Source: Alphaproteobacteria bacterium (GTDB taxonomy: Bacteria; Pseudomonadota; Alphaproteobacteria; UBA8366). From it: 64,000 bases of DNA. The notes beneath the pieces were generated by a model, which had not been told where the DNA came from, did no database searches, and saw nothing but the letters and a program-made list of their open reading frames with translations. A program made the position numbers and the translations under genes. Below, one piece after another: positions 259-30,135 of this stretch (position 1 is the stretch's first letter; every line of letters begins with the position of its first letter). The stretch is taken from NCBI GenBank assembly GCA_965228695.1, contig CBDDIB010000001.1, positions 373,893-437,892 of the forward strand. The letters are read 5' to 3'.

Positions 259-612
259 GTGATAAGATTGTACGCGATACGCGCATTACTAGTTTTAATA
301 GTATTAATCTTCTCGACCGCGGTACCTTCGACGCCGGCGCTTGCTCACATCGTGCCAAACGGCTTTTCACCAATGATCATTGCGAAGAGCCATATCGTCG
401 AATATGACACGCTGGCCGAAGGAGACTCGGACTGCTGCCACACAAATGGATTTGGCGCCATTTGCCAAGCGGCACCCGTTCCCCGGTCGACTGCTCTTTC
501 ATTTATTTGCCGGCTGGTCGAACTTGAGAGAATCCGGCCACATTCTACAATTTCCCTCTCGAGCCTCCGTATTACCCCGCCCACTCCACCCCCAATCTTT
601 GGGACCACGTGA
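259..612 (+). CDS. CutF/CopL/DUF2946-like Cu-responsive leader protein
   Basis: Signal peptide (..PALA), DCCH..C motif, C-terminal PPTPPP; directly downstream of CueR-type promoter and upstream of cytochrome genes. Confidence 0.6.
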   Translation: MIRLYAIRALLVLIVLIFSTAVPSTPALAHIVPNGFSPMIIAKSHIVEYDTLAEGDSDCCHTNGFGAICQAAPVPRSTALSFICRLVELERIRPHSTISLSSLRITPPTPPPIFGTT

Positions 613-658: not shown

Positions 659-1273
659 ATGAAACGGAAAGTTACACTTGCCGTGATTGTAGTTGCGCTT
701 GTTTCCGCCGCAACTGCCGGCGCAATTGCCCACAGCGGCGCAACCGGTGTCGTAAAAAAGCGAATGGATGCGATGGATGCCGTCGGAGATGCGATGAAAT
801 CGCTCACGGCAATGATGCGAGGAAAGGAAACTTATGACCCGGAGCGGGTGCGATTGGAAGCACGCAAAATCAACGCCCACAGCGGCGATTCATTAACAAA
901 ACTTTTCCCGGAAGGCAGCCTGCAGCCTCCGACCGAAGCGTTGCCTGCGATTTGGACGGATTGGGAGAGGTTTTCCGAACTAGCTAAACAACTATCAACC
1001 TACGCAACGGCGCTTCAGGCGGCGGCCGATAATCAACGCCCAAGGCGCGGTCCGGCGGGTACAAAACCAAGTGGCTCCGGAATGATGCAGGGTGGCCCCG
1101 GAATGATGCAGGGCGGCCCCGGAATGATGCAGGGCGGCTCCGGAATGATGCAGGGCGGCACCAAAGTTGAACCGAGTGCGGAAATGCTCGCTCAGATGCC
1201 ACCCGACGCTTCATTTTTCCAACTCACGCAAACGTGCGCAGCCTGCCATCAAGACTTCCGCAAGAAAAAATGA
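659..1273 (+). CDS. cytochrome c' (class II) with Met/Gly-rich insertion
   Basis: Signal peptide, ALPAIW.DWE.F motif, C-terminal CAACH heme motif; GAGG RBS at 647-650. Confidence 0.85.
   Translation: MKRKVTLAVIVVALVSAATAGAIAHSGATGVVKKRMDAMDAVGDAMKSLTAMMRGKETYDPERVRLEARKINAHSGDSLTKLFPEGSLQPPTEALPAIWTDWERFSELAKQLSTYATALQAAADNQRPRRGPAGTKPSGSGMMQGGPGMMQGGPGMMQGGSGMMQGGTKVEPSAEMLAQMPPDASFFQLTQTCAACHQDFRKKK
1073..1156 (+). repeat. 4 x 21-bp in-frame tandem repeat encoding G(S/P)GMMQG
   Basis: ggc(t/c)ccggaatgatgcaggg(t/c) units at 1073, 1094, 1115, 1136. Confidence 0.95.
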
Positions 1274-3319: not shown

Positions 3320-4366
3320 ATGACCAGAAAAGTGCTCGCCGGATTGTCGCTCATAATTCTTGTGGGAACGGCAAACGCTGAAGACGTTGTGTATGTCTCG
3401 CTTGGGACAACCGGAAAAGTTCAAATCATCGACCCCGCTCAAGACCGTGTCGTCGGTGTCCTTGAACCAGTTCCCGATGTCCACGGACTTGCCGTAACGC
3501 CGAACGGAAAATTCATTGTGGCCGGCAGCCTAAGCGAACAAAACTGGCTTCCATCCGAAAACTCGGACGTGCGCCCGGGTCAAAGATCCGTTCAATATGC
3601 CGCCACGATCCGCCAACCAATGGAACTGAGGCAAAAAGTCAGTTTTTTAACGATTGCTCGAACTGAGGACGGCGCAATCATACGGCGCATACGAGTACCG
3701 GGCGCCGTTCGCCATGTCGCGATAACGCCAAACGGTCGGTTTGCGATCGCAACACATCCCTATTCGAATTCCATATCCATTGTCGACCTTCAGAAGCTGA
3801 AACGACTAAACACGATACGGACCGGGACCCATCCGAATTATGTCGCCATAGGGCCCAAGGGCAAATGGGCATACGTCAGCAATACTGAAAGTAATAGTAT
3901 CAGCGAAATCGACCTGGAAGGCTGGCAGATACGACGCGAATTCTTAACCCAAGACGGCCCCGAGCATATCGTGTTGTCGGCCGACGGGAATACGCTTTAC
4001 GTCTCCCACAGCAGAGCGGGCACCGTATCGGAAGTTGCGGTGCGGTCGGGTCTGGTTGCCGCCACTCATGAAATCGGCCAAGCCTTGCATGGAATCGACC
4101 TGTCCTACGACGAGAAGACACTGTTTATCGCCGCAGAGCGGCAGAAAAAAATTCTTTCCATTGATCTCAAAACCGGCCGGGTTCGAAGTAACAGTTTGCC
4201 GTCGACGCCTTACCACGTCTCCACAATTAAGCGCGCCGGAAAGGTGTATATTTCTAGCGCAACCGATCCTGTGGTCTGGGTGTTGCGCCAAGATAGTCTC
4301 GAGTTGCTGCGTACAATACGTATCGGCGGTATCGGGCACCAAATGATCTTTGTTCCACCGACCTAA
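3320..4366 (+). CDS. YncE/YVTN-family periplasmic beta-propeller
   Basis: Signal peptide from M3320 (alternative start 3299), repeated V.VID / P..VA.SPDG blades. Confidence 0.8.
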   Translation: MTRKVLAGLSLIILVGTANAEDVVYVSLGTTGKVQIIDPAQDRVVGVLEPVPDVHGLAVTPNGKFIVAGSLSEQNWLPSENSDVRPGQRSVQYAATIRQPMELRQKVSFLTIARTEDGAIIRRIRVPGAVRHVAITPNGRFAIATHPYSNSISIVDLQKLKRLNTIRTGTHPNYVAIGPKGKWAYVSNTESNSISEIDLEGWQIRREFLTQDGPEHIVLSADGNTLYVSHSRAGTVSEVAVRSGLVAATHEIGQALHGIDLSYDEKTLFIAAERQKKILSIDLKTGRVRSNSLPSTPYHVSTIKRAGKVYISSATDPVVWVLRQDSLELLRTIRIGGIGHQMIFVPPT

Positions 4367-4435
4367 AAGGGTCCGGCGATACGCCGGCACAAACCCACGG
4401 GCGACAAACCCGGCCAAGCGAAAGGCGAAATTAAA

Positions 4436-5227
4436 TTGTTTACTCATATTCGTAACAAGGTGCTCAATCTGAGCGTTTCATTCCTTTTCGTGGCAGTCAG
4501 CCTAGCAATTTTCGATGTCGGCACAGCGTTAGCGGATTCGAACGGGACCGAATTCGACGATCGCGAAAAAAAGGCCATCGAATCAATTGTCACCGACTAC
4601 CTGTTGGAACACCCCGAGATCATCTTGCGCGCCCTACAGGTCCTTGAGGAGCGTGAGCAAGCGGCAAAAGCTGCACAAGAAAAGAGCGCCCTCGCCGCCA
4701 ATCGAGACGCCTTGGAGCGAGACCCTAATTCACCGGTAGCAGGAAATCCAAAGGGCGACGTCACAGTGGTCGAGTTTTTCGACTACCGCTGTCCATATTG
4801 CAAACGCGTAGGACCGGTGGTCGAACGGCTCCGGAAAGAAGATGCGAACATCAGGATTGTCTACAAGGAATGGCCGATACTCGGGCCAGCCTCGATGTTT
4901 GCCGCAAAAGCGGCGTTAGCGGCACGCGAACAGGAGAAATACGTCGAGTTTCACGAGAAGGTCATGGCGGCACGCACCGTCACCGAAACAAGCGTCCTTA
5001 GCGCGGCGAAGGAACTCGGTCTCGATCTCGACAAGCTGCGCGCCGACATGGAGACGCCGGAAGTCGAGAACCACATCAGACAGACTATGGAATTGGCGCG
5101 GGCCCTAGGGATCAATGGCACGCCAGCCTTTGTGATCGGCGACCGACTGATTCCGGGAGCCGCGGATTTCGCCGCGTTATCGAAAGCCGTCGCGGAAGCC
5201 CGAGCGGATCAACAATCATCGAAGTAG
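4436..5227 (+). CDS. DsbA family thiol-disulfide oxidoreductase (ScsC-like)
   Basis: EFFDYRCPYCK active site, GINGTPAF cis-Pro loop, N-terminal YLLEHPEII helix; start uncertain. Confidence 0.9.
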   Translation: MFTHIRNKVLNLSVSFLFVAVSLAIFDVGTALADSNGTEFDDREKKAIESIVTDYLLEHPEIILRALQVLEEREQAAKAAQEKSALAANRDALERDPNSPVAGNPKGDVTVVEFFDYRCPYCKRVGPVVERLRKEDANIRIVYKEWPILGPASMFAAKAALAAREQEKYVEFHEKVMAARTVTETSVLSAAKELGLDLDKLRADMETPEVENHIRQTMELARALGINGTPAFVIGDRLIPGAADFAALSKAVAEARADQQSSK

Positions 5228-6997: not shown

Positions 6998-9472
6998 TCA
7001 AAGTCTCACTCTCCTCAGCCGCAATGAGTTGCCCACGACCGAGACCGAAGACAGGCTCATCGCTGCAGCGGCTATGATCGGCGACAAGAGAATTCCGAAG
7101 AAGGGATACAGCACGCCGGCCGCAACAGGCACACCGGCAGCGTTGTAGATAAATGCAAAAAACAAATTTTGCTTGATGTTGCGCATGGTCGCGTCCGCGA
7201 GCCGTCGTGCCCTCACAATAGCCGTCAGGTCGCCTTTCACTAAGGTGAAGCCGGCACTTTCAATCGCGACATCTGCGCCGGTTCCCATGGCGATCCCGAC
7301 ATCGGCTTGGGCCAGGGCAGGCGCGTCGTTCACCCCGTCACCGGCCATTGCTACCCGCGCACCCTCCTCCTGAAACTCTCGGACGATACGCGCCTTATCT
7401 TCGGGCAACACGTCGGCGCGAATTTCGTCGATGCCAAGTCGGGATGCAACCGCCCTGGCGGTTCGCTCATTGTCGCCGGTGACCATAACGATGCGCAATC
7501 CCTCTGCATGAAGCGATTTCAGTGCTTCCGGTGTCGTGTCCTTTATCGGGTCCGCAACGCTCACCAGTCCGGCAATTCGTCCTTCGACAACGACGAACAT
7601 AACGGTTTCGCCACGGTCGCGCCGTTGATCGGCAACGTCCGCCGCGGTTTTGCCGTCGAGCCCAAGGTCGGCAACCAATCTTGCATTGCCCAGCGCAACA
7701 CTCTTACCGGCGACTTTTCCCTTCACGCCCTTTCCTGTAATCGCTTCGAATTCTTGCGCCTTGGACAACGCGATGCCGCGCTCCTCCGCGCCGGCCACGA
7801 TCGCTTCGGCAAGTGGATGCTCGCTCCCGCGCTCCAGCGAGGCGGCGATACCTAAAAGTTCCGCCTCGTCTTCACCGTCCTCCGGTAGCAAGGCCATGAG
7901 CTTCGGTTTCCCGACTGTCAGAGTGCCGGTCTTATCAACTATCAGTGTATCGACTTTCGCGAAACGCTCGAGCGCCTCGGCATTCTTGATAAGCACGCCG
8001 GCCTGAGCACCGCGGCCAGTGGCGGTCATGATCGACATCGGCGTGGCCAGACCCAGCGCGCAGGGGCAAGCGATGATAAGGACGGTAACGGCCGCCACCA
8101 GCGCATAAGCCATCGCCGGCGCCGGGCCCCATACCGACCACGCGACAAACGCCAGCACGGCGACCAGAATGACCGCAGGCACGAAATAACTTGCGACTAG
8201 ATCCGCTAGCTTCTGTATCGGGGCACGGCTACGTTGCGCCTGTGCGACCATGTCAACGATCTGAGACAAGACGGTGTCCGCACCGACCCGCCGCGCCTCT
8301 ATCACCAGCGAGCCGCCGCCGTTGATCGTGGCACCGGTTACACTATCGCCTTGCGCCTTTTCGATGGGAACCGGCTCGCCGGTGAGCATGGACTCGTCAA
8401 TCGACGATCGACCCTCGATAACCTCGCCGTCTACCGGTACCTTGTCGCCGGGACGGATCCGGAGATGCTGCCCGACCCGTACATCCTCTAGAGGGACCTC
8501 TTCGTCCCTGCCGTCCGGACGAACGATATGTGCCGTCTTTGGCGCTAGATCCAACAGCGCTCGAATCGCGCCTCCCGTCCGCTCGCGAGCCCGCAATTCG
8601 AGCATCTGGCCTAGCAACACCAGCACGACGATGACCGCCGCGGCTTCGTAATAAACGCCGACATGCCCCTCCGCATCCTTAAAGCCATCGGGGAACACTT
8701 CCGGCGCCGCCGTCGCCACGACACTGAAGGCAAACGCGGCACCGACACCCATTGCGATGAGCGTGAACATATTCAGATTGCCGCTCACAACCGATTTCCA
8801 ACCGCGCACGAAAAACGGCCACCCGGACCACAAGATAACCGGCGTCGCGAGAATGAATTCCGCCCAAACAGCCACGCCTTCGCCGACCCATTGACGTATT
8901 GGAAACCCAACCAATGGCCCCATGGTCAGCAAGAGGATTGGAATCGTGAGTACGGCGCCAACCCAAAAGCGCCGGCTAAAATCTACGAGCTCCGGATTCG
9001 GGCCAACTTCGCCCGTCGGCACCCCCATCGGCTCCAGCGCCATTCCGCAAATCGGACAATCGCCGGGACCGTCCTGAATAATTTCGGGATGCATTGGGCA
9101 TGTGAATTGAGTGCCCGCGGGCATTGGCTCAGGGGGCGTTCGCCCTTCCAAATACGCTGCCGGTTCCGCCTCGAACTTTTCATGGCAGCGCTCCGAACAG
9201 AAATAGAAGCGCGAGCCTTGGTGCGTGGTGACATATCGCGCGGTGGCGCGCGCGACGTCCATACCGCACACAGGGTCGTTTGCCTCCAAAAATTCATCCG
9301 GCGCAGCGGCAAACTTCTCACGGCAACCCGCACTGCAGAAGTGATAGCTGTGGCCTTCATGATCATAGGTCGAACTGTCGGACTCCGGATCGACGATCAT
9401 CGCGCATACCGGATCTCGAATGACGTTGGTCTCGGAATGACCCAAATCTTGCTGCTGTGATTGGAAAGCCAT
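6998..9472 (-). CDS. copA: Cu(I)-translocating P1B-type ATPase with two N-terminal YHS domains
   Basis: DPVC..FCS..C twice, [31 protein letters not shown] and MSLSS Cu(I) signatures. Confidence 0.95.
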
Positions 9473-9769: not shown

Positions 9770-10138
9770 GTGTCCCGCGGCGGCAAAAATACCAACAGTC
9801 TCAGCTGCGTTTGCCGCGCACTCTTCTTGACGTTGCTCCTCGTTATGCTGCTGTCAATTCCGATCTACTATTTCGGCGATTCCAGCACGTTCGAGCATCC
9901 GTCGATCGCTTCGTTGGACCAGCATGACGATTCTGAACATCACGATCATAGCGGTCACGGACACCGGTCTTCAAATTGCGGCCCGGTATCATGCTCCCCA
10001 GCCTCGCCGAATTCAGTGGCTCCAATTGTAGCCCGCTTCGCCACATCCACCTGGGTTCCTATCGACGATACCAAGCATTCGTCGATTTATCTGGATCGCG
10101 ACCCGCCGATACCGCGCCTAAGCAACTCCAAAGTCTGA
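9770..10138 (+). CDS. CutF-like leader protein (His-rich, CxxxxC, Pro-rich tail)
   Basis: AGGAG RBS 9758-9762, hydrophobic segment, HDDSEHHDHSGHGH, CGPVSC, YLDRDPPIPR tail; paralogous to 21852-22229. Confidence 0.65.
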   Translation: MSRGGKNTNSLSCVCRALFLTLLLVMLLSIPIYYFGDSSTFEHPSIASLDQHDDSEHHDHSGHGHRSSNCGPVSCSPASPNSVAPIVARFATSTWVPIDDTKHSSIYLDRDPPIPRLSNSKV

Positions 10139-10488
10139 TTGAATTTTGGGTGGTGAAATTGCCCTTTTACCGGGGTGACGTCACCTGCGTCGGGAACCGC
10201 TGAGCCGGTAACCAGCGAAATTTCGCGGTGCATTTTCCAAAATTTCTGACGGCTGTTTGGCCCACGCAATATGTTGTGTCCGGTGGCGTGTTTCAGCCTT
10301 AGGGAACACCGCACATACGAACCTTCTTCGTGGTCCTTCGCGCGCTCGTCAACCCGACGAGTCTTTCGTGAGCATATCCGATAGTGCGCCTGATGTTCGG
10401 CCACGACGTTGGCCCTTCAACCGGTTTCACCGAGTTCGGTTGAACGTTCGGCGTCAGACGATCGGATTCCAACGTGAAATTCGACCCT

Positions 10489-18805: not shown

Positions 18806-19555
18806 ATGAATGCGGCCAACATTCAACCTGCTGGACACCTGTTGATCGTCGACGACGATCACGAAATTCGCGACCTGCTGGCTCGGTTCCTTACCAAACA
18901 TGGCTATCGGGTTACCGCCGTCGCAGACGGCAATGAAATGCAACGCTCCCTTGCCGATTGGAATTTCGATTTGGTGATTCTCGATCTCATGCTGCCGGGA
19001 AAGGACGGTCTGACCCTGTGTCGGGAACTCCGAGCGGAATCGCACACGCCTGTCATCATGCTGACGATGGTGGGGGAGGAAACCGACCGAATTGTCGGAT
19101 TGGAGATGGGCGCCGACGACTATCTCGCAAAGCCATTCAATCCGCGCGAACTCCTCGCCCGCATTAAAGCCGTTTTACGGCGCGCCAAGCATTCGCCAAC
19201 CGACCGGACAACCGGGCATCAAATGTATCTCAATTTCGCCGGTTGGAAGATCGATCTCACGCTTCGTCGGGTCGTTTCGCCTCATGGTCACGTCGTCGAC
19301 CTCAGCGCGGGCGAATTCGATCTCCTCGTTGTTTTCGCACAACACCCAAAACGGGTTTTGACTCGCGATCAACTCCTGGACTTCACCCACGGACGCTCGG
19401 AAGCGCCTTTCGATCGCAGCGTGGACATGCAGGTCAGCCGCCTGCGGCACAAAATAGAGGCTAATCCGAAAGAGCCCGAACTGATCAAAACCGTTCGGGG
19501 CGGCGGCTATATGTTTGCGGCGATCGTGGACGAAGATGGCTCGACTGATACCTGA
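18806..19555 (+). CDS. OmpR-family response regulator
   Basis: VDDD, LDLMLPG, GADDY.AKPF, winged-helix DRSVD..RLR.K..TVRGGGY. Confidence 0.95.
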   Translation: MNAANIQPAGHLLIVDDDHEIRDLLARFLTKHGYRVTAVADGNEMQRSLADWNFDLVILDLMLPGKDGLTLCRELRAESHTPVIMLTMVGEETDRIVGLEMGADDYLAKPFNPRELLARIKAVLRRAKHSPTDRTTGHQMYLNFAGWKIDLTLRRVVSPHGHVVDLSAGEFDLLVVFAQHPKRVLTRDQLLDFTHGRSEAPFDRSVDMQVSRLRHKIEANPKEPELIKTVRGGGYMFAAIVDEDGSTDT

Positions 19556-20933
19556 TACCGTCGCAAGCCGAACGCTTGCAGTTCTTATCATCGGGCTAAC
19601 CGTCTCACATATTTTAAGCATCGCCCTCTATTTCCACGACAGGACGAGTGAGATCTTCTTTAGCGGCGGCGAACACATCGGCGAACGAATCGCCACGATC
19701 AGCCGCCTCATAGAGAATTCAACCCCTACGGAGCGCCAAAGACTTGCCGCTTTGGCGGACGGCAAAAAATTGCATGTGCTTTGGACTCAAAGAAGCGCCA
19801 TAGAAAAAAAATTGGCGCAGCCTTGGAAAGCAACAATCCTCCGCGATGGGCTGTTGAAGCATCTGGAAAACGGAAAAGTGCGCGAGTTCAGATTTCAATA
19901 TGTCGACAGTGTGGCGGTTCCCATCTGGACCAACCATGCGGAGGAGTTCCATGCCGGTTCGGAAATGGGCGAATCTTTTCTGGCATCGCTGCAGTTATCG
20001 GATGCGAGTTGGCTCAACTTTGCGGCTCCAATAGAAAATCCACCTCCGTTTTGGTCTTTCCGACTCGTGCTCTCATTGCTGGTTATGTTGGCGGCGGTTA
20101 TCGCGTTGTCGGCATTGGTCGTGCATCACCTGGTCAGGCCACTCGCCATATTTTCCGCCGCGGCCCAGCGGCTCGGCACGGATGTCAATGCGCCACCACT
20201 AGATGAAAATGGTCCGGAAGAGGTACGCCAAGCCACCCTGGCGTTCAATCAGATGCAGCGAAGGCTCCGCCGGTTCGTCGAAGACCGCACGCAAATGGTC
20301 GCTGCGATCGCGCATGACCTAGGAACCCCTATCACACGGCTCCGGCTTCGGGCTGAGTTCATCGAGGACGAGCAAGAGAAACAGAAGGTTCTCGCCGACC
20401 TTGAAGACATGGAGAGAATGGTATTCGCCACGCTGTCATTCGCGCGTGACGAAGCCTCTTCAGAACCGCGCGCTGTAGTGGATTTGAATACGCTCATCCG
20501 ACGCGTCCACGACGCATTTACCGATATGGGTAAATGCGTAACGCTGACACTTAGGCCGGGTCCCGTGCCATTCAACTGTCAACCGGTCGCTTTTCGCCGC
20601 GCGCTCTCAAATCTGATCGATAATGCAGTGAAGTACGGCCGTTCGGCTCATGTACACCTGGATGAGGTCGATCAACACATCCAAATAAGGATCGACGACA
20701 ACGGTCCCGGGATCCCCGAAGAACGACAGTCGGATGTGCTCAAGCCATTTTTTCGGCTTGAGGAATCACGCGGCCGCGAAACCGGCGGAACGGGTTTGGG
20801 CCTTACCGTTGCGCGAACCATCGTACACGCCCATGGGGGAGACATCGTCCTGCGAAATAGGCCTGAAGGCGGTTTGCGGGTCGAAATAACGCTGCCGCGG
20901 CAGGGAATAGAAGACGGACAAGCCGCGTCATAG
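19536..20933 (+). CDS. HAMP-domain sensor histidine kinase
   Basis: Two TMs, HAMP, AHDLGTP H-box, NLIDNAVKY, DNGPGI, GTGLGL. Confidence 0.95.
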   Translation: MARLIPDTVASRTLAVLIIGLTVSHILSIALYFHDRTSEIFFSGGEHIGERIATISRLIENSTPTERQRLAALADGKKLHVLWTQRSAIEKKLAQPWKATILRDGLLKHLENGKVREFRFQYVDSVAVPIWTNHAEEFHAGSEMGESFLASLQLSDASWLNFAAPIENPPPFWSFRLVLSLLVMLAAVIALSALVVHHLVRPLAIFSAAAQRLGTDVNAPPLDENGPEEVRQATLAFNQMQRRLRRFVEDRTQMVAAIAHDLGTPITRLRLRAEFIEDEQEKQKVLADLEDMERMVFATLSFARDEASSEPRAVVDLNTLIRRVHDAFTDMGKCVTLTLRPGPVPFNCQPVAFRRALSNLIDNAVKYGRSAHVHLDEVDQHIQIRIDDNGPGIPEERQSDVLKPFFRLEESRGRETGGTGLGLTVARTIVHAHGGDIVLRNRPEGGLRVEITLPRQGIEDGQAAS

Positions 20934-20945
20934 AGTCGGTGGAGA

Positions 20946-21635
20946 ATGCACTCGTCACTCAAGCTTAGATTGGTCGTCGGAATAGTAGCTGTCTCTCTGC
21001 TCACCCTGGCGTATTGGGTTATGGCGCGAACTGGAGTACTCGCGCTGATCCTTGATGGACAGGCGTTGCGTCAGTGGATTGGAACGATCGGATTTTGGGG
21101 GCCGTTAGCGATCATTGGGACAATGACAGTCGCAATTCTCGTAAGCCCCATCCCAAGCGCTCCGATTGCCTTGGCGGCGGGCGCGGCCTATGGCCACACA
21201 TTAGGAACGGTTTACGTGGTCATCGGTGCGGAGGCGGGCGCCATCGCGGCCTTCGCAATAGCTCGGATTGTCGGCCGCGACGTATTGCATCGCTGGTTTG
21301 GAGACAAGGTGTCAGTAGGTCTTCTCGGATCCCAGAATCTCCTTATGGGTATTGTTTTTGCCAGTCGTCTCCTCCCCTTCATTTCCTTCGATCTGATCAG
21401 CTACGCTGCCGGGCTGACGCCTCTGTCGTTATGGCGGTTCGCGCTTGCGACCTTCGCCGGGATTATCCCGGCAAGTTTTCTGCTCGCCCATTTTGGTGGC
21501 GAAATGACTACGGGCGAGACGGAACGGATTTTGATTTCGGTGTTCGTGCTCGGGGGTATGACGCTCCTCCCCCTCGCCGTCAAATTTGCCCGTGACCGGT
21601 TCGCAACCCGGCGACCGGATGGGCACCGAAAGTGA
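20946..21635 (+). CDS. TVP38/TMEM64 (DedA/VTT) family membrane protein
   Basis: SPIPS, AGAAYG, RLLPFISFDLISYAAG motifs. Confidence 0.9.
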   Translation: MHSSLKLRLVVGIVAVSLLTLAYWVMARTGVLALILDGQALRQWIGTIGFWGPLAIIGTMTVAILVSPIPSAPIALAAGAAYGHTLGTVYVVIGAEAGAIAAFAIARIVGRDVLHRWFGDKVSVGLLGSQNLLMGIVFASRLLPFISFDLISYAAGLTPLSLWRFALATFAGIIPASFLLAHFGGEMTTGETERILISVFVLGGMTLLPLAVKFARDRFATRRPDGHRK

Positions 21636-21851
21636 TCGGCCGAACTCACCTCCCGATGTTGACGCGAACGCTCTCAGTGATCACCGCCGGACCCGGTGGT
21701 GTATTACGCCGACATCTCAGAACCGCGATCGAAAAACCGGTGGGGAGCCTGTCGACGGAACCAAACGGAATAATACCTTCGCATTTCTTGATTTCGAATT
21801 GCGGTCCACCCATATCCTGGCAATTGTGAGTCCGGTTGAAGGAAAGTCGCA

Positions 21852-22229
21852 TTGACTGACGTCGGCGAATTCGGAAAGGGCATCTTGCCAATTTTTCGCT
21901 CGGTAATTTACGGATTGCTTGTGCTGGCGATGGTTTCGGCGCCGATCTCCTATTCCGGCAACGTCCAAGCATCCGACCTTCAATCTCACTTTTCATCGGC
22001 CCAAACGGGTGAATTCGGAACCGCCGGCCACAATAATCGTGACCACAAATTACACCATTGTGGTTCTCTCATCTGCTCGCCTTTCTATAGGTCCGGCTCG
22101 TTGGTCGATTACCCGCCGTTTTCGAATTTGTCGAAGATGCAAAAGCCAAATATTGACGACACGCTTGTGAAGTCGCTCTATTTGGATTGCGATCCCCCAG
22201 TGCCGCGACGCGGTTTCTCCAAAGCTTAA
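21852..22229 (+). CDS. CutF-like leader protein upstream of cupredoxin/multicopper oxidase operon
   Basis: Signal-like segment, HKLHHCGSLIC, YLDCDPPVPRR tail; start codon uncertain. Confidence 0.7.
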   Translation: MTDVGEFGKGILPIFRSVIYGLLVLAMVSAPISYSGNVQASDLQSHFSSAQTGEFGTAGHNNRDHKLHHCGSLICSPFYRSGSLVDYPPFSNLSKMQKPNIDDTLVKSLYLDCDPPVPRRGFSKA

Positions 22230-22377
22230 TCCACCCTTCGGGTAGCACTGTCTTTCCACATTGAGGTTGCCGGAACTGACGTCTAGCGACGTTCAGCGTG
22301 GGACCGGCTGTGGTTGCTGCGCCCTACCGAAAACACCGGATGCTTTATCCGCACACAAAACTAGGAGAAATCAAATC

Positions 22378-22932
22378 ATGACATCCACTCTTGCAAGGTT
22401 ATCCATTTATTCAGTTCTCGCGGCGACGCTCGCGCTAACTATTTCCGTCGGTGCCCCCGCGACGGCGAAACCTGGCCGTGGCCATGGGCAAGAATCTGCC
22501 ATAGGCGAACCGGGAAATGCCTCTCAGGCCTCCCGCACGATCACGATGAAGATGACCGACAATCGTTTCACACCGGGAAAGGTTTCCGTTCGCAAAGGAG
22601 AGACGATCCGATTCAAGGTGAAGAATTCCGGAAATTTTGTACATGAGTTCAATATCGGAACCGCCGCAATGCATATCGACCATCAAAAGGAAATGATGAT
22701 GATGTTCGATCACGGGGCACTCGAGGTCGACAAAATACATCGGGGAAAAATGGCGATGGCTATGCCAAACGGCGCCACGATGCAACATGACGATCCCAAC
22801 AGCGTCCTGCTCGAACCGGGAGAAACCGCCGAGGTCATCTGGGAATTCTCCACCGATGCCGAGCTTGAATTCGCCTGCAACCTTCCGGGCCACTACGAGT
22901 CGGGAATGATGGGTCACATTCGCGTCAATTGA
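22378..22932 (+). CDS. cupredoxin (CopI-like, plastocyanin/azurin fold)
   Basis: AGGAG RBS, HEF, FACNLPGHYESGM type-1 Cu ligands, Met/His-rich loop. Confidence 0.9.
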   Translation: MTSTLARLSIYSVLAATLALTISVGAPATAKPGRGHGQESAIGEPGNASQASRTITMKMTDNRFTPGKVSVRKGETIRFKVKNSGNFVHEFNIGTAAMHIDHQKEMMMMFDHGALEVDKIHRGKMAMAMPNGATMQHDDPNSVLLEPGETAEVIWEFSTDAELEFACNLPGHYESGMMGHIRVN

Positions 22933-22940
22933 CAAAACCG

Positions 22941-22968
22941 GGCAGCCCGTCCACCGCGGCGGGCTGCC
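22941..22968 (+). other. intergenic stem-loop between cupredoxin and multicopper oxidase
   Basis: GGCAGCCCG...CGGGCTGCC inverted repeat, no T-run. Confidence 0.55.
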
Positions 22969-22994
22969 AATTCCTAATATTCAGGAGACAAGAA

Positions 22995-24674
22995 ATGCAG
23001 CGCATTCCGCTTAGCGTTTGGGGTTTGGCCGTCGTGACGATCGTGGTGTGGCTATCGTCGACGGCCGGCACTCAAGCTGGGACATATGATCTCACAATCG
23101 GCGAGAAAACTATCAACCTAACCGGCCGGGACAGGCCGGCCCTTGCGATCAACAACACCATTCCTGGACCGGTTCTTCGGTTCAAGGAAGGCGAAAACCT
23201 CACGATCAACGTTACCAACACACTAAATGTCGACACATCCATTCATTGGCATGGATTGATTCTGCCGTTCGAAGAAGATGGCGTGCCGGGCATAAGCTTC
23301 GACGGCATCAAACCGGGCGAGACCCATACCTATCGGTTCCCCGCACAACAGAGCGGCACGTATTGGTATCACAGCCATTCCGGGTTGCAGGAGCAATCCG
23401 GCGTCTATGGTTCCATCGTGATCGAACCGGAAAACCCCGAACCATTCCAATTCGACCGGGAACACGTGGTCGTCCTTTCGGATTGGCATGACACCAAGCC
23501 GGAACGGGTACTCGGTAACCTCAAGAAGATGTCGGACTACTACAATTTCAGCCAGCGAACGGTCGGCGACTTCTTCGACGACGTATCGGAAAAAGGCCTC
23601 GCGGCGACGGTCAAGGACCGAAAGATGTGGGGTAAAATGCGCATGGCGCCCACGGATATCGCGGATGTCAGCGGCTACACGTTTCTCGTCAACGGCAAGA
23701 ATCCCGACCAAAACTGGACCGGCCTTTTCAAACCCGGCGAGCGGGTGCGGCTCCGATTCGTCAATGCCTCCGCGATGACCTATTTCGATGTCCGAATTCC
23801 CGGATTGAAAATGACGGTCGTTCAGGCCGATGGCAACAACGTACAGCCCGTCACCGTTGACGAGTTCCGCATTGCCGTTGCGGAAACTTACGATGTGATC
23901 ATCCGGCCCGAACACGACAAGGCCTACACACTGTTCGCCGAATCGATGGCCAGGACCGGATTCGGCCGCGGCACGCTCGCGCCACGAGTCGGAATGTCGG
24001 CAAAGGTACCCGCTCAGCGAAAGCGCCCACTCCTCAGCATGTCGGACATGATGATGGATCATGGCGGCGTGAACCAAGATTCGATGACAGGAACGGACCA
24101 CGACTCGATGAAGGGCACGAACCACGGCTCGATGAAGGGCATGGACCATTCGAACATGGGCGCGCCGAAATCGGACCCATTCTATGCACCCAACAGCGGG
24201 CTTATGCCGAAGGCCGCAAATGGCGGAAAGTTTCTATCCTACGCTGATCTGAAGGCGCACAAACCGCTCTACGAGGTGCGCAAACCCACGCGCGAAATCA
24301 CCATCCGATTAACCGGAAACATGGAACGGTACTTCTGGACGATCAATGACCGGAAGTACTCAGATGCAGAGCCGCTGCGTCTGAAATACGGCGAACGTGT
24401 CCGCTTCAAGTTCATCAATGAAACCATGATGACCCACCCAATGCATCTGCACGGCATGTGGAAGATGATCGACAACGGATCGAAAAAGTGGAACCCGGTC
24501 AAACACGTCGTGAGCATCGCACCGGGCACGACCGTCTACACCGAAACCGAAGTCGACGCACCGGGCAGGTGGGCGTTCCATTGCCACCTCATCTATCACA
24601 TGGCAACGGGCATGTTCCGCGAGGTGATCGTTGAAGGCGGCCCGGACGCCAAACAAGCCAACGCCGGAGGCTAA
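22995..24674 (+). CDS. copper resistance multicopper oxidase (CopA/PcoA family)
   Basis: HWHG, WYHSH, HPMHLHG, HCHLIYHM motifs; Met/His-rich region; AGGAG RBS. Confidence 0.95.
   Translation: MQRIPLSVWGLAVVTIVVWLSSTAGTQAGTYDLTIGEKTINLTGRDRPALAINNTIPGPVLRFKEGENLTINVTNTLNVDTSIHWHGLILPFEEDGVPGISFDGIKPGETHTYRFPAQQSGTYWYHSHSGLQEQSGVYGSIVIEPENPEPFQFDREHVVVLSDWHDTKPERVLGNLKKMSDYYNFSQRTVGDFFDDVSEKGLAATVKDRKMWGKMRMAPTDIADVSGYTFLVNGKNPDQNWTGLFKPGERVRLRFVNASAMTYFDVRIPGLKMTVVQADGNNVQPVTVDEFRIAVAETYDVIIRPEHDKAYTLFAESMARTGFGRGTLAPRVGMSAKVPAQRKRPLLSMSDMMMDHGGVNQDSMTGTDHDSMKGTNHGSMKGMDHSNMGAPKSDPFYAPNSGLMPKAANGGKFLSYADLKAHKPLYEVRKPTREITIRLTGNMERYFWTINDRKYSDAEPLRLKYGERVRFKFINETMMTHPMHLHGMWKMIDNGSKKWNPVKHVVSIAPGTTVYTETEVDAPGRWAFHCHLIYHMATGMFREVIVEGGPDAKQANAGG
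24071..24150 (+). repeat. about 3 x 24-bp imperfect repeat encoding (N/D)H(D/G)SMKG(T/M)
   Basis: gaaccaagattcgatgacaggaac / ggaccacgactcgatgaagggcac / gaaccacggctcgatgaagggcat. Confidence 0.8.
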
Positions 24675-24679
24675 CGCTT

Positions 24680-25405
24680 ATGTTTCGCAGTAAATCATGC
24701 GCATTCGCCATCGCGCTCATCCTGGCGGCGGTCAACTATGTAACACCGGCCAAGGCTGAAAAGCTCGATGATGAGTTCTTCACCTTGGTCAAAATCAGCC
24801 AACTGGAGTACCGGTTCCAGGACGACAACGATATCCTGTCCTGGGAAGGGCAGGGACGGATTGGAGACGACAAGAATAAGCTTACTTTCAAGACCGAAGG
24901 CGAATACGTCCCTAAGGAAGATGTATTCGAGGGAGCCGAGGTACAATTACTGTACCAAAGGTTGATCTCCGATTTTTTCGATGCGCAAATCGGTGTCCGG
25001 CACGACATAAAGCCAAACCCGTCACGGACGTTCGGCGTAATCGGGGTCAACGGGCTGGCGCCCCAATGGTTTGAAACGGATGCCAGTTTCTTTGTGAGCA
25101 ACAAGGGCGACGCCTCGGTTCGGCTGGAGGCTGAATACGAGATGCTGCTTACGCAGCGTCTCGTGCTTGAGCCGTCCGCCGAATTGAACGTCGCCTTTTC
25201 CGACGACGAGGCGGTCGGCGTAGGCGCGGGCTTAAGCAATGCCGAACTTGGTTTGAGGCTGCGCTACGAAGTAACGCGCAAATTCGCCCCCTATATCGGC
25301 ATCAACTGGGAGCGAAAAATCGGCAAAACCGCCGATTTTGCCCGTGACGAGGACGAGGATCCTGATGTCCTTTCCGTCGTTGCCGGCATCCGCGCCTTCT
25401 TTTAA
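24680..25405 (+). CDS. copB: copper resistance outer membrane protein CopB
   Basis: QLEY, GLAPQWFE, LLTQRLVLEP, GLRLRYE..RKFAPYIG, terminal Phe. Confidence 0.92.
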   Translation: MFRSKSCAFAIALILAAVNYVTPAKAEKLDDEFFTLVKISQLEYRFQDDNDILSWEGQGRIGDDKNKLTFKTEGEYVPKEDVFEGAEVQLLYQRLISDFFDAQIGVRHDIKPNPSRTFGVIGVNGLAPQWFETDASFFVSNKGDASVRLEAEYEMLLTQRLVLEPSAELNVAFSDDEAVGVGAGLSNAELGLRLRYEVTRKFAPYIGINWERKIGKTADFARDEDEDPDVLSVVAGIRAFF

Positions 25406-27552: not shown

Positions 27553-28308
27553 ATGTCTGAAACTACCGAAGCGAAATCCGCCGAACTCTATCGCATGGTC
27601 ATGGATGAACATGTCTGTCCCTATGGCCTGAAATCGAAGGACCTGCTGGAGCGGCGTGGCCTCGACGTGAAGGATCACCCGCTGACCACGCGTGAGGAAA
27701 CCGATGCTTTCATGGAAAAACACGGCGTCGAAACCACGCCGCAGACCTTCATCGACGGGGAACGGATCGGCGGCTACGAATCATTGCGCGAGTATTTCGG
27801 GGAAGAAGTAGAGGACGAAGACGAGACCACCTACCAACCGGTGATCGCGATTTTCGCGGTGGCGGCCCTGATGGCGCTCGCCCTTGGCTTCGGCCTTTAC
27901 GGCACGGCGCTTCACATACGCGTCTTCGAGTGGTTCATCTCTATTTCCATGTGTTTCCTCGCCGTCCAGAAACTACAGGACGTCGAGAGTTTTTCGACAA
28001 TGTTCTTGAACTACGACCTTTTGGCGCAGCGTTGGGTCCGATACGGCTACGTCTATCCGTTCGGCGAAGCCTTGGCGGGCATTCTCATGGTTGGCGGGAT
28101 ATTGAGCGTCATATCCGTGCCCGTGGCGCTCTTCATCGGTACGGTCGGCGCCGTATCCGTATTTAAAGCGGTCTATATCGATAAACGGGAGTTGAAATGC
28201 GCGTGCGTCGGCGGCGGCTCCAACGTGCCGCTCGGCTTCGTTTCGCTGACCGAAAACCTCATGATGATCCTGATGGGCCTATGGATGGGTGCGAAGGCGC
28301 TCGGTTGA
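27553..28308 (+). CDS. glutaredoxin-MauE/DoxX fusion membrane protein
   Basis: CPYG, TTPQ.FIDG.RIGG, LKCACVGG, TEN motifs. Confidence 0.85.
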   Translation: MSETTEAKSAELYRMVMDEHVCPYGLKSKDLLERRGLDVKDHPLTTREETDAFMEKHGVETTPQTFIDGERIGGYESLREYFGEEVEDEDETTYQPVIAIFAVAALMALALGFGLYGTALHIRVFEWFISISMCFLAVQKLQDVESFSTMFLNYDLLAQRWVRYGYVYPFGEALAGILMVGGILSVISVPVALFIGTVGAVSVFKAVYIDKRELKCACVGGGSNVPLGFVSLTENLMMILMGLWMGAKALG

Positions 28309-28695
28309 TCACGCATCGGGCGGATTACGGGGAAGATCGATCTTCCCTGACGTCAACAGCAGGATCGGCTTTCTGTAGTGAAACGGTAATCACATGACAG
28401 CGCGATCCGGCGTTCCCTAATCTGATTTCTTTCGAACCGTCGTCTCGAACGGCGCACTTTATCTATGGTGCTGTAGGGGTAGAGATGGAAACTCAGGTCG
28501 CGGTCTCTAACGGCGAGCCGCCGAGCGCAACGAGCAATGCGTGAAATTTTCATCTAGCGTCGATCCAGACGGCAATTTCACAACATCGTTTAGATAGAAA
28601 AGGCCGGCACGTTAAACAATTAATCACACGGCAATCCGTCACACGAACCAAGCCCCAACACGAATTCTTTGGCATTTACGTCCTATCCGAACACG

Positions 28696-28720
28696 AAAAA
28701 GCCTCCCTTATGGGAGGCTT
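28696..28720 (-). terminator. intrinsic terminator downstream of tRNA 3' fragment
   Basis: Minus strand AAGCCTCCC-ATAA-GGGAGGCTTTTT. Confidence 0.8.
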
Positions 28721-28741
28721 CGTTAGTCGTCGATATGTATT

Positions 28742-28786
28742 TGGTTGCGGGGGTAGGATTTGAACCTACGACCTTCAGGTTATGAG
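28742..28786 (-). repeat. att site: 3' half of tRNA-fMet (45 bp)
   Basis: Minus strand CTCATAACCTGAAGGTCGTAGGTTCAAATCCTACCCCCGCAACCA = anticodon loop (CAT), T-arm and CCA; 5' half absent; next to integrase. Confidence 0.9.
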
Positions 28787-28918
28787 ATCGTTTAAGCCCT
28801 CTTTCCCGACATTGGACCGAGCTAGCTGTACTTAGATAAACTGCTGAACAAAAGGGGTTATTTTGACGCTTTCGGTTTGATAGACTATGCGGCAGATAGC
28901 GTGAATTTGCGTCCAAGT

Positions 28919-28937
28919 GGTACCCATACGGTACCCA
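28919..28937 (+). repeat. GGTACCCA direct repeat, candidate integrase arm-type site
   Basis: GGTACCCA at 28919-28926 and 28930-28937 between att and int. Confidence 0.5.
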
Positions 28938-28974
28938 GAACGGGCCGACGCGAGACACGATCGGGAGCCGCAAA

Positions 28975-30135
28975 ATGCCGAAACTCACCAAACGTCTTGT
29001 CGATTCCCTGAAGCCGGAAGCGTCCGATGTTGTGCATTGGGACGATTCACTATCGGGCTTTGGGGTTCGAGTGCGCCCGACCGGCCGAAAGTCCTACATC
29101 GTCAAATGCCGCTGTCGTGGCCGTCAGATCAAAATGACGATCGGCACCCACGGCCCCATAACTGTTGAGCAAGCCCGGACCAAAGCGCGGGGCATCATTG
29201 CCGAGGCAAAGGCAGGCCAAGATCCGTCCGCTGAGCTTTCCCGGATGCGAAAATCGCCAACGATGAAAGATCTGGGTCAGCGGTTCCTAGACGAATATGT
29301 CCCTACCCATTGCCGGCCTTCCACTGAGCGCGAGTATCGTCGGTCGGTTGAGCTATTCATCAATCCGGAAATCGGGACACGGAAAGTCATCGACATCGAG
29401 CGTACCGACATCGCCAAACTGCATCATGGCTTGCGCGACAAGCCATACCAGGCCAATCGGACGCTCGGTGTGCTTTCGAAGATGTTCAACCTTTCAGAGG
29501 TTTGGGGCCTCCGCCCGGACGGGTCGAACCCTTGCCGGCACGTAAAGAAGTACAAGGAGGAAAAGCGCGAACGTTTTCTCTCCGACGAAGAGTACAAACG
29601 GCTTGGCGAGGCGCTGCGTAAAGCGGAGGTCGAGAGGACCGAGACTCAATCGGCAATCGATGCAATCTGGCTGCTCATGCTGACGGGCTGCCGGCTGAAC
29701 GAAATCATGACGTTGAAGTGGGCATATGTAGACGTCGAAACGAAAGAGTTGCGCCTTCCCGACTCCAAAACCGGAGCCAAAACCGTTCATCTCGGCACTG
29801 CGGCGATCAATCGGCTCAAAAAGGTCAAGAAGCTCGAGGACAACAAGTTCGTCATTACAGGGAAAAAATCTGGAGGACGCCTCACAGATCTTCAGCATCC
29901 CTGGAGACGCATTCGAAAAACGGCCGGCTTGAACGATGTGCGGCTCCACGACCTTCGGCATTCTTTCGCGAGCCATGGTCTTATCGTCGGCGAAGGACTG
30001 CCCATGATCGGAAAGTTGCTGGGGCATTCGCAAATCCAGACAACGGCCCGCTATGCCCATTTGGCGAATGATCCGATCAAGTCGGCCGCCGACCGTATCG
30101 CCGATGGGATCTCGATGTCAGCGGCAGCCTCGTGA
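28975..30135 (+). CDS. int: tyrosine recombinase/integrase with arm-binding domain
   Basis: WD..LSGFGVRV.PTG.KSY N-domain; TGCR, SKTG, HDLRH, LGHS, TARY catalytic residues. Confidence 0.95.
   Translation: MPKLTKRLVDSLKPEASDVVHWDDSLSGFGVRVRPTGRKSYIVKCRCRGRQIKMTIGTHGPITVEQARTKARGIIAEAKAGQDPSAELSRMRKSPTMKDLGQRFLDEYVPTHCRPSTEREYRRSVELFINPEIGTRKVIDIERTDIAKLHHGLRDKPYQANRTLGVLSKMFNLSEVWGLRPDGSNPCRHVKKYKEEKRERFLSDEEYKRLGEALRKAEVERTETQSAIDAIWLLMLTGCRLNEIMTLKWAYVDVETKELRLPDSKTGAKTVHLGTAAINRLKKVKKLEDNKFVITGKKSGGRLTDLQHPWRRIRKTAGLNDVRLHDLRHSFASHGLIVGEGLPMIGKLLGHSQIQTTARYAHLANDPIKSAADRIADGISMSAAAS

Follow-up and report, generated by a model that had tools for sequence, protein, structure and literature searches.

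A putative CutF-like leader whose last codons are predicted to pair with the ribosome-binding site of a cupredoxin, multicopper oxidase and copB operon

Our analysis of the window (the whole 64,000-nucleotide stretch of DNA examined here) indicates that the ORF at 21852-22229 is probably the CutF-like regulatory leader of an operon encoding a CopI-like cupredoxin, a multicopper oxidase and CopB, and that it would act as a translational switch of the CutF type. In the free mRNA, codons 121-123 of the leader (GGUUUCUCC) would pair across ~150 nt with the RBS of the cupredoxin (GGAGAAAUC) and keep this RBS closed. A ribosome standing on the last 8-10 codons of the leader would strip the 5′ arm from the helix, and a 30S subunit could then load at the cupredoxin start. 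The dwell time of the ribosome on the tail would presumably be set by the invariant DPPVPR motif, and may respond to copper bound by the nascent chain in its exported CX4C/His-rich region, as in CutF. Our computations show the helix, its conservation and covariation, selection at the RNA level on the codons that form it, and a predicted effect on the accessibility of the SD.

The leader is built of an N-terminal hydrophobic segment, a His-rich stretch, C70-x4-C75 and the tail SLYLDCDPPVPRRGFSKA, followed by the stop codon (Table 1). Residues 16-35 were judged by eye to be hydrophobic, with VQA-SD after them, and this segment can be aligned in every member of the family. In the alignment of 39 family sequences (A2) both C70 and C75 are invariant or nearly so, P115, P116 and P118 are invariant and D114 is nearly so, in a family that is otherwise ~26% identical (mean per column) and whose residues past the Pro motif are mostly variable. 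In the window leader C75 and P115 are 40 residues apart, and P115-P116 lie 10-11 residues before the C terminus. A HMMER search of representatives delimited the family to 44 representative clusters at E<=1e-3, while a word-based protein search found a single homologue and the ORF reached no Pfam or NCBIfam model. When the family was sought in 28 genomes of the same taxonomic family and 91 of the same order, it was present in only three, all of the window's genus and the window's own among them. We infer that the leader is translated, exported, copper-binding and arrested at its Pro motif, and likewise the sign of its response.

Table 1. Features of the leader and of the operon that follows it, in window coordinates.
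Feature	Position	Strand	Basis
Leader ORF, CutF-like, 125 aa, TTG start	21852..22229	+	ORF list
Hydrophobic segment, codons R16-S35; putative signal peptide or N-terminal anchor	21897..21956	+	translation, by eye
Cys motif C70-G-S-L-I-C75 (HHCGSLICSP), candidate copper-binding site	22059..22076	+	alignment A2
DPPVPR, codons D114-R119, candidate arrest motif	22191..22208	+	conservation; analogy with CutF PPPRL
Anti-SD GGTTTCTCC, codons G121 F122 S123, helix 5′ arm	22212..22220	+	complementarity, folds, codon bias
TAA stop of the leader	22227..22229	+	sequence, ORF list
Intergenic region, 148 nt; local hairpins enclosed by the long-range helix	22230..22377	+	fold
Cupredoxin RBS GGAGAAATC, helix 3′ arm	22364..22372	+	sequence, fold
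CopI-like cupredoxin, 184 aa, with signal peptide; ATG 22378-22380	22378..22932	+	Pfam Cupredoxin_1, Copper-bind
Multicopper oxidase, CopA/PcoA type; start overlaps cupredoxin stop	22929..24674	+	three Cu-oxidase domains
CopB outer-membrane copper resistance protein	24680..25405	+	Pfam CopB, E 1.2e-83

The initial annotation had assigned the RBS to a cupredoxin heading a multicopper oxidase-copB operon, and the domains of all three genes agree with this assignment. The first protein matches the NCBIfam CopI model NF051440 (E 3.4e-56, 189.9 bits) below its cut-off of 280 and is therefore named CopI-like; the oxidase scores 757.7 bits with TIGR01480 (copper_res_A), over the cut-off. The order leader-cupredoxin-multicopper oxidase is retained in 9/9 loci examined. 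Directly upstream of the leader lies an OmpR-type two-component pair (response regulator and histidine kinase, 18806-20933). A promoter and terminator scan of 21500-22500 found no site of the scanned types on the + strand of the spacer, an Rfam scan of 21500-22600 returned no family at E<=1, and no tRNA was found beside the integrase within 28000-29200.

Antiparallel alignment of GGTTTCTCC and GGAGAAATC gives nine pairs (G-C, G-U, three U-A, C-G, U-A and two C-G), just as the complementarity with one G-U that had first drawn attention to the locus. The anti-SD had been placed immediately 3′ of the Pro codons; it is indeed nearby, but two Arg codons (22206-22211) intervene after the Pro codon at 22203-22205. 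When 22190-22385 is folded, the helix forms in the MFE structure as well as in the centroid, and the pairing is thermodynamically favoured, the tail and the RBS being the best partners among local windows at -13.8 kcal/mol. None of 120 other leader and intergenic windows of the same length matches the tail in binding the RBS window, and none of 300 dinucleotide shuffles of the tail binds the RBS as well. The energy of the whole fold of 22190-22385 is ordinary when compared with shuffles (z 0.25). In five sequence contexts of 196-641 nt, the mean pair probability of the helix was 0.82, 0.78, 0.22, 0.96 and 0.68. The + strand of the 64-kb window has a single GRTTTCTCC motif; counting both strands there are four matches against 1.35 expected, one of which is the RBS read on the opposite strand.

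Searches that included one with a 12-sequence subset of the 39-sequence leader alignment gave 35 related loci, of which 22 were unique and scorable, with leaders only ~26-67% identical. In 12/22 loci the tail outranks every other leader or intergenic window as a partner of the RBS, and the mean probability of the helix exceeds 0.5 in 18/22, the other four being L014 (0.04), L035 (0.11), L016 (0.35) and L017 (0.44). Masking of the tail arm cuts the cost of opening the SD by at least 1 kcal/mol in 20/22 loci (median 7.2 to 3.6). In longer context the helix stays above 0.5 in 14/21 loci, whereas windows displaced by -45, -90, +45 and +80 reach this in 0, 1, 0 and 0 loci. In the alignment of the 22 sequences (A4), whose pairing counts are not independent because the sequences form roughly eight lineages by eye, 90.9% of the cells of the 10-pair helix can pair, compared with 32-57% for slid partners, and 0/500 shuffles attain this value. 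Three helix pairs show double-sided changes (eight cells), which stem from four sequences and perhaps 2-3 events. Covariation among homologous loci, which the initial annotation had named as a check, is therefore present to some degree in this alignment, where pairing is conserved; RNAalifold, run de novo, returns the helix as the sole consensus structure. Two distant family members, L056 (with the oxidase directly downstream) and L058, have no such helix (probability 0.0).

The pairing is kept at the level of the RNA. In the short-tail members (L015, L018 and L037, which end in DPPVPK[STV] and a stop) and in L017, the columns of the anti-SD hold other residues or the stop codon, pairing is retained and the flank of the RBS is altered to match. 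The position of the helix is fixed relative to the Pro motif and not to the stop, which shifts by five codons between long- and short-tail members. Where the tail reads G-F-S, the G codon is GGT in 13/17 loci against a local background of 20%, the F codon is TTC in 17/17 against 66%, and the S codon is TCC in 13/17 against 25% and AGY in 0/17 against 23%, every one of these shifts being toward pairing bases. GGC, found in four GFS loci, leaves an uncompensated C-A mismatch. On the other arm, the AAAYCG flank 3′ of GGAG is conserved in the GFS-tail loci and was found in 0/29 other alphaproteobacterial copI loci lacking a GFS tail.

Three Pro-tailed leader-like ORFs are present in the window (259-612, 9770-10138 and 21852-22229), and two window leaders share the tail S[LI]YLDxDPP[VI]PR, as had been noticed from the sequence. 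The count of three such leaders holds for the peptides but not for the switch, since the paralogue at 9770-10138 has neither a copper gene nor such an RBS downstream. Its next gene is an MBOAT acyltransferase, no SD-bearing start was found within 400 nt of it in two of its three copies, and it was set aside as an instance of the same switch. Beyond this family, Pro-tailed leaders head CopI-type cupredoxin operons in 27/29 alphaproteobacterial loci sampled, and pairing between tail and RBS is predicted in 18/26 other copI loci of the class with different Pro-tailed leaders, while shifted control windows in those 26 loci pair in 0, 0 and 2.

By analogy with the PPPRL of CutF, DPPVPR may be the arrest site, and the effect of an arrested ribosome on the RBS would depend on where exactly it stops. 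Counted from the first base of codons P115, P116 and P118, the anti-SD starts 18, 15 and 9 nt further on, and a ribosome arrested at DP|P would therefore leave it free. In a classical polyproline arrest (P site P115, A site P116), the edge of the ribosome would fall 2-3 nt before the helix. Indeed, when the P site holds P115 or P116 and the ribosome covers 12-15 nt downstream, the anti-SD is outside and the predicted cost of opening the SD is not reduced, whereas once P118 or any codon after it occupies the P site this cost is predicted to drop from 5.4 to about 2.8 kcal/mol, the latter being the cost that persists (~2.8 kcal/mol) even when the anti-SD is masked. The proposal that a stall at PPVP covers the anti-SD would consequently hold for P118 onwards but not for P115 and P116.

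These distances and the other copI loci can be combined in a wider reading, which we regard as tentative and somewhat improbable as a whole. Alphaproteobacterial copI/copA operons would generally follow an undescribed design rule, by which an exported, Pro-tailed leader carries the anti-SD within its final codons and with it closes the next RBS over 44-240 nt, and this rule would be found again in leader families without detectable similarity. In the DPPVPR subfamily the helix would have been relocated so as to begin 15-18 nt past the PP codons, exactly where the mRNA enters a ribosome arrested on polyproline. Here it would both mask the RBS and, as a roadblock, tune the arrest. The arrest and the opening would become two distinct events in sequence, and the response could even run opposite to that of CutF.

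Plain translational coupling would dispense with regulated arrest altogether: cupredoxin translation would be tied to leader translation because each ribosome that reaches the leader stop opens the helix, copper control would be purely transcriptional (for example through the OmpR-type pair, which sits directly upstream) and the exported peptide would use the Pro motif otherwise. We consider this unlikely, even though the anti-SD would be covered equally well by a ribosome that terminates and by one that is arrested (predicted SD opening of 2.6-3.0 kcal/mol) and the classical DP|P stall falls short of the helix. It leaves unexplained that P115, P116 and P118 do not vary in 39 otherwise divergent sequences and that the helix tracks the Pro motif rather than the leader stop; moreover, a comparable tail is required for regulation by CutF, according to the available part of PMC8456105.

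The logic may also be inverted, as in CruR, with an arrest at DP|P, before the helix, that keeps the RBS closed or affects the access of Rho to the 148-nt spacer, while the operon would open once this arrest is relieved; the pause may even be strengthened by the helix, which stands where the mRNA enters the ribosome. The anti-SD is free under such an arrest, and CruR, as described in the accessible portion of PMC9426467, combines a 162-nt spacer and Rho with relief, instead of arrest, by copper. C exceeds G in 21918-22100 (+10 to +17%) and 22178-22255 (+10%), a skew that is ambiguous as a Rho signal. Against this stand the mid-spacer, which has a predicted structure and no richness in C (0 and -4%), the complementarity to the RBS, whose conservation Rho dependence leaves unexplained, and the nature of the operon, which serves detoxification and would be expected to be copper-induced like CutO. 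We therefore hold the inverted scheme to be improbable. Finally, it is very hard to maintain that the RNA has no function, with G-F-S kept as peptide, GGAGAAAYCG as a strong RBS and the complementarity as a by-product: UUCUCC does resemble any anti-SD, CUCC in GC-rich coding sequence pairs with any GGAG and the whole-fold z-score is unremarkable, but the synonymous codons are skewed toward pairing bases, the short-tail members and L017 still pair without G-F-S through a changed RBS flank, positions past the Pro motif otherwise vary, and shifted controls pair in only 0-1 of 20-21 loci.

Returning to the CutF-type switch, CutF-like proteins are defined by rules (Ozturk et al. 2021/2023), and the published list, in the part of PMC9973294 available to us, counts 5,334 members. 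The window leader is shorter than the limit of 150 residues (125 aa), has PP near its C terminus (P115-P116) and is followed on the same strand by a copper gene, 148 nt from its stop to the cupredoxin ATG at 22378. Its central Cys motif stands at the conserved distance from PP in the variant form CX4C, not CxxxC, and the SD-shielding mRNA structure corresponds to the predicted, conserved helix, which is computed only. The definition also asks for an N-terminal Sec signal peptide, for which the hydrophobic segment at residues 17-35, followed by VQA-SD, is the candidate, and copper-dependent arrest on the Pro motif in the course of export is a further trait of the group, for which DPPVPR is the candidate site. 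The description of these leaders as an undescribed subfamily is partly supported, in that the ORF reaches no Pfam or NCBIfam model, the profile comparison with canonical DUF2946 has a probability of 16% and the literature search found no paper with the string 'DPPVPR', but the leader fits the published definition of CutF-like proteins.

CutF itself, from the cutFOG locus of Rhodobacter capsulatus, is according to the accessible text of its reports an exported leader of ~120 aa with a central Cys motif (C69xxxC73), a spacing of ~40 residues and, at the C terminus, a Pro motif with Arg after it (GPPPRL and stop, with PPP within P109-L118), the Pro tail being needed for regulation (PMC8456105). 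It too lies upstream of a multicopper oxidase operon, and an mRNA structure shields the SD of the next gene; CutO is induced by Cu only if cutF is translated and if the Cys motif, Pro tail and SD-shielding stem-loop are all present, as the available portions of PMC9973294 and bioRxiv 10.1101/2025.02.05.636593 have it. The window family differs in carrying CX4C and DPPVPR plus 0-7 residues instead of CxxxC and PPPRL, and shows no demonstrable sequence homology to CutF. The first regulated gene here is a CopI-like cupredoxin, a word absent from the main text of PMC9973294, and the anti-SD is within the last codons of the leader and forms its helix over a distance of 99-157 nt, whereas the structure of CutF, in the text available, is a compact intergenic stem-loop.

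CruR (Bp2923 of Bordetella pertussis, DUF2946; Roy et al. 2022) also senses copper as an upstream ORF; it carries a Cys motif and, at its C terminus, a Pro motif, and a long stretch of 162 nt separates it from the regulated gene, but its motifs are CXXC and RAPP and it represses an uptake transporter by Rho-dependent termination that Cu relieves; an anti-SD/SD helix is not described for it in the accessible portion of PMC9426467. CopL, of the copLAB operons of Xanthomonas and Stenotrophomonas, is a small Cys/His-rich ORF upstream of the multicopper oxidase copA, required in cis for Cu induction and classed among CutF-like proteins in the part of PMC9973294 available; its NCBIfam model CopL_fam (NF033807) is matched by 1/39 family members (E 3.4e-4) and not by the window ORFs. 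Arrest on an upstream ORF that opens a structure hiding an RBS is also known from SecM-secA, MifM, VemP and ErmCL (bioRxiv 10.1101/2025.02.05.636593, accessible part), which differ in sensing secretion or antibiotics with other arrest sequences.

Homology of the leader family to DUF2946 was sought by three approaches, none of which established it. Pfam DUF2946 (PF11162) has no match in the leader ORF and none over the cut-off anywhere in the genome, and its HMM gives weak matches in 10/39 family members (best E 0.0015). The comparison of A2 with an alignment of canonical DUF2946 members (A5) by hhalign has a probability of 16% over nine columns; the family has CX4C and DPPVPR in place of the CXXC and RAPP of DUF2946, and RAPPxxx is the C terminus of 14 canonical members from this class of bacteria. 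Protein language-model neighbours of the leader are named DUF2946 or CzcI-like, and serve as leads only.

To our knowledge, copper sensing by a nascent chain has been studied only in CutF and CruR, and their authors reportedly left open how leaders with long spacers act. The locus described here and its relatives offer a concrete and testable answer for such leaders: as the anti-SD is within the leader's own tail, the distance to the RBS becomes immaterial, and natural covariation marks the bases worth mutating. Pfam models cover almost none of the leaders of copI operons, which are therefore missed when genomes are annotated. For copper-resistance islands, the locus implies that promoters and two-component systems do not suffice to tell the output of an operon.

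The two arms of the proposed helix lie where the initial annotation had placed them, one being an anti-SD in the tail of the CutF-like leader and the other the RBS of the downstream cupredoxin (see table), and in antiparallel orientation they form 9 pairs, one of them G-U. The anti-SD had been described as immediately 3′ of the Pro codons. Between it and the last Pro codon (22203-22205) are 2 Arg codons, so that the distance is 6 nt. When the region 22190-22385 was folded, the helix appeared in both the MFE and the centroid structure; the fold as a whole was not better than shuffles (z 0.25), and the mean pair probability of the helix in five contexts was 0.82, 0.78, 0.22, 0.96 and 0.68. The tail is the best partner of the RBS window (-13.8 kcal/mol): 0/120 other leader or spacer windows and 0/300 dinucleotide-shuffled tails bound it as well, and GRTTTCTCC occurs a single time on the + strand of the 64-kb window.

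Features of the leader locus and of other Pro-tailed ORFs in the window
Feature	Coordinates	Strand	Details
Third Pro-tailed leader-like ORF	259-612	+	117 aa, hydrophobic N terminus, CCH + C motifs, tail ITPPTPPPIFGTT*
Cytochrome c′ gene	659-1273		46 nt downstream of ORF 259-612
Copper P-type ATPase	6998-9472		divergent from the leader paralogue
Leader paralogue	9770-10138	+	30% identical to leader; tail SIYLDRDPPIPRLSNSKV; tail to stop DPPIPRLSNSKV*
GACGTC-like element	10174-10185		GGTGACGTCACC, downstream of the paralogue
Leader ORF	21852-22229	+	125 aa, TTG start, stop TAA at 22227; tail SLYLDCDPPVPRRGFSKA
Anti-SD	22212-22220		GGTTTCTCC, codons G121-F122-S123 (GFS) of the leader
GACGTC-centred hairpin or palindrome	22276-22296		CTGACGTCTAGCGACGTTCAG, leader-cupredoxin spacer
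Cupredoxin RBS	22364-22372		GGAGAAATC; ATG (22378) follows after 5 nt
Phage-type integrase	28975-30135	+	Arm-DNA-bind_3 + Phage_integrase

By analogy with CutF of R. capsulatus, a ribosome may arrest on this tail. CutF is a protein of 118 aa that carries the Cys motif C69xxHC73 and ends in P109EPEGPPPRL118; both this Cys motif and the Pro tail of CutF are reported to be needed for CutO (PMC8456105). Translation of cutF is required in cis, the cutO SD is described as shielded by a stem-loop between cutF and cutO, and mutating the anti-SD of this stem-loop makes CutF dispensable; the proposal is that export and Cu binding prolong CutF arrest and that the ribosome melts the stem-loop (PMC9973294). 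EF-P dependence and arrest at PPP have also been reported for CutF (bioRxiv 10.1101/2025.02.05.636593).

The initial annotation had a ribosome stalled at PPVP covering the anti-SD. We simulated its footprint at the window's locus as forced single-strandedness from -12 to +12 or +15 of the P site. These limits are general values for a ribosome. Opening the SD costs 5.4 kcal/mol on unoccupied mRNA; with P115, P116 or V117 in the P site it is predicted closed (4.2-6.7 kcal/mol), and the cost falls to 2.6-3.0 kcal/mol when P118 (+15), a later codon or the stop codon is in the P site. The cover model is thus limited to a stall at the last Pro or later, and in a classical DP/P stall the leading edge of the ribosome would be 2-3 nt short of the helix. 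Plain translational coupling, in which passage through the leader would itself expose the SD, is the first rival to arrest. As to termination, the long and short tails of related loci differ by five codons in the place of the stop, while the helix columns of their alignment (A4) stay constant, and the position of the helix is hence tied to the Pro motif and not to termination.

A CruR-like or inverted logic with Rho is a second rival. CruR (DUF2946), with CXXC and RAPP and a 162-nt spacer, is described as acting via Rho and being relieved by Cu (PMC9426467). The N terminus of the window's leader is basic and hydrophobic and looks by eye like a signal peptide (residues 16-35); the leader also has a His-rich stretch and the Cys motif HHC70GSLIC75SP. 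A profile search of 1.84 billion representatives yielded a leader family of 44 proteins at E<=1e-3, 15 of them at 1e-10; among 39 aligned members C75, P115, P116 and P118 never vary, and C70 and D114 hardly do. The leader ORF reaches no Pfam or NCBIfam model, and the DUF2946 HMM has no match over its cut-off in the window's genome. DUF2946 is weakly matched by 10 of the 39 members (best E 0.0015) and CopL_fam by 1; when the family was compared, profile to profile, with canonical DUF2946 members from the same class (14 proteins, each with a RAPPxxx end), the probability was 16% over 9 columns. Language-model neighbours named DUF2946 and CzcI-like are leads only. The locus is a CutF-like switch by its architecture, and membership in DUF2946 is not demonstrable.

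For the helix itself we gathered 35 related loci: L004-L009 belong to genomes of the window's genus, and genome and metagenome contigs supplied 9 and 20 more. After leaving out paralogue copies (L007-L009), loci whose sequence ends too soon downstream (L021, L022, L027) and exact region duplicates, 22 unique regions remained, with leaders about 26-67% identical to that of the window. The tail reads ...DPPVPRxGFSxx in 17 of them (DNA GG[TC]TTCTC[CTAG]), and their cupredoxin RBS is (C)AGGAGAAA[CT]CG, 99-148 nt away. In the short-tail loci L015, L018 and L037 (DPPVPK[STV]*), AAATCCTGAATTTTCC-like tails face GGAGATTC[AC]GG; in L017 (tail DPPVPKSEISFI*) AUCUCCUUC faces GAAGGAGAU, and in L014, where GLA replaces GFS, the alternative pairing is weak only. 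In A4, a MAFFT alignment of the 22 regions (about eight lineages by eye), a 10-pair helix (columns 21-30 with 199-208) is paired in 90.9% of 220 cells, some cells being lost because the row of L016 is out of register at the RBS by one base; sliding the partners by 1-3 columns reduces the figure to 32-57%. Double-sided changes occur at 3 pairs (8 cells, from four sequences), a 13-pair extension is 79.2% paired with 4 such pairs, and RNAalifold without a hint returned 8 pairs of the helix and no other structure. The check among homologous loci proposed in the initial annotation thus shows a conserved helix with some covariation.

As background for codon choice within GFS we took the leader and cupredoxin genes at these loci. 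Gly is GGT in 13/17 loci (background 20%; GGC 54%), Phe is TTC in 17/17 (66%), and Ser is TCC in 13/17 (25%) and AGY in 0/17 (23%). Every departure favours bases that pair with GGAGAAA[UC]C, and the GGC of four loci leaves an uncompensated C-A mismatch. To our knowledge nothing at the 3′ end of 16S rRNA corresponds to the AAAYCG flank that follows GGAG, and this flank was not seen in 29 other alphaproteobacterial copI loci.

In single-sequence ensembles the helix probability exceeds 0.5 in 18/22 loci (exceptions: L014 0.04, L035 0.11, L016 0.35 and L017 0.44), and masking the tail arm lowers the SD opening cost by at least 1 kcal/mol in 20/22 (median 7.2 to 3.6 kcal/mol). With 130 nt of extra upstream context the helix remains above 0.5 in 14/21 loci. 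In this longer context, control windows shifted by -45, -90, +45 and +80 nt exceeded 0.5 in 0, 1, 0 and 0 loci, and 0/500 column shuffles of A4, a control that ignores relatedness, reached 90.9% pairing. Coincidence is a very improbable explanation of the helix. Conservation, some covariation, codon bias and these controls make the RNA half of the proposed switch well supported.

The leader is followed by genes for a cupredoxin of 184 aa, a multicopper oxidase and CopB. For the cupredoxin there are matches to Pfam Cupredoxin_1 and Copper-bind, and one to NCBIfam CopI below its equivalog cut-off (E 3.4e-56); the oxidase is above the cut-off of copper_res_A. In the metagenome-assembled L012 the oxidase frame that follows the cupredoxin runs from 4113 to 4835 in that locus, 241 codons, and has the first Cu-oxidase domain only; an assembly error or a frameshift may be the cause. 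On its 5′ side the leader has genes for an OmpR-type regulator, a histidine kinase and a DedA/VTT protein, and there are a copper P-type ATPase, ScsC, DUF411 and cytochromes elsewhere in the window. The integrase directly follows the copper genes and closes the island, which suggests that the copper cluster belongs to a mobile island or adjoins one; a search of 28000-29200 for a tRNA gene was negative. The GACGTC element of the spacer, with similar TGACGTCA or CTGACG elements in spacers of distant homologues, may form a hairpin in the RNA or be a site bound by a protein.

The leader paralogue is kept in 2 other genomes of the genus (L008, L009). The next gene, 336 nt further on (region 10139-10473), encodes an MBOAT acyltransferase and is no copper gene, and in 2/3 copies a search of 400 nt downstream gave no start with an SD; CCAAAG in the paralogue's tail may pair locally with UUUGG right after the stop, as judged by eye. 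At ORF 259-612, the MFE of 560-680 pairs the Pro-codon stretch CCACUCCACC with UGGAUUGAGG of the next RBS (fold z-score 0.31).

CopI-like cupredoxins are found in 59/401 sampled genomes of the class. Among the matches listed, 27/29 copI loci (L061-L089) are preceded on the same strand by a frame of 100 codons or more that has PP among its 15 final residues and ends no more than 350 nt upstream, a count made without a chance control; the two others are L067 (contig end) and L089 (85 codons). These leaders are small ORFs of unannotated type, whose translations begin with a hydrophobic, signal-like segment, contain His-rich stretches and Cys motifs, and end in tails such as TPPPRL, PPPPRV, RPPKLVS and YPPRS. 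Setting aside L067, L089 and L082 (same place as L058), and with the start of L072 moved by hand, 26 loci remained, with spacers of 44-239 nt; only 1/26 leaders matches DUF2946, below its cut-off. In 18/26 the probability of pairing between the Pro-tail and RBS windows is >0.5, and for windows shifted by -40, -80 and -120 nt this is so in 0, 0 and 2. In many of these loci the 5′ arm consists of the PP-R-x-stop codons themselves (for example CUCCUCGAGUCUGAG), whereas in the window's subfamily it lies two codons further down. Among copI leaders, a tail-embedded anti-SD seems to be common.

In the definition of the 2023 paper (PMC9973294), a CutF-like protein is shorter than 150 aa, has PP among its 15 final residues and a signal peptide, and has a neighbour on its strand no more than 1000 nt away; the words 'cupredoxin' and 'CopI' are absent from the main text of that paper, and 'DPPVPR' was not found in the literature searched. 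The window's leader family is rare, occurring in 3/28 genomes of the window's family (all 3 within its genus), 3/91 of its order and 4/401 sampled from the class. What is new here is this CX4C/DPPVPR leader family, a CopI-like protein as first target, and an anti-SD embedded in the leader tail that would act over about 150 nt.
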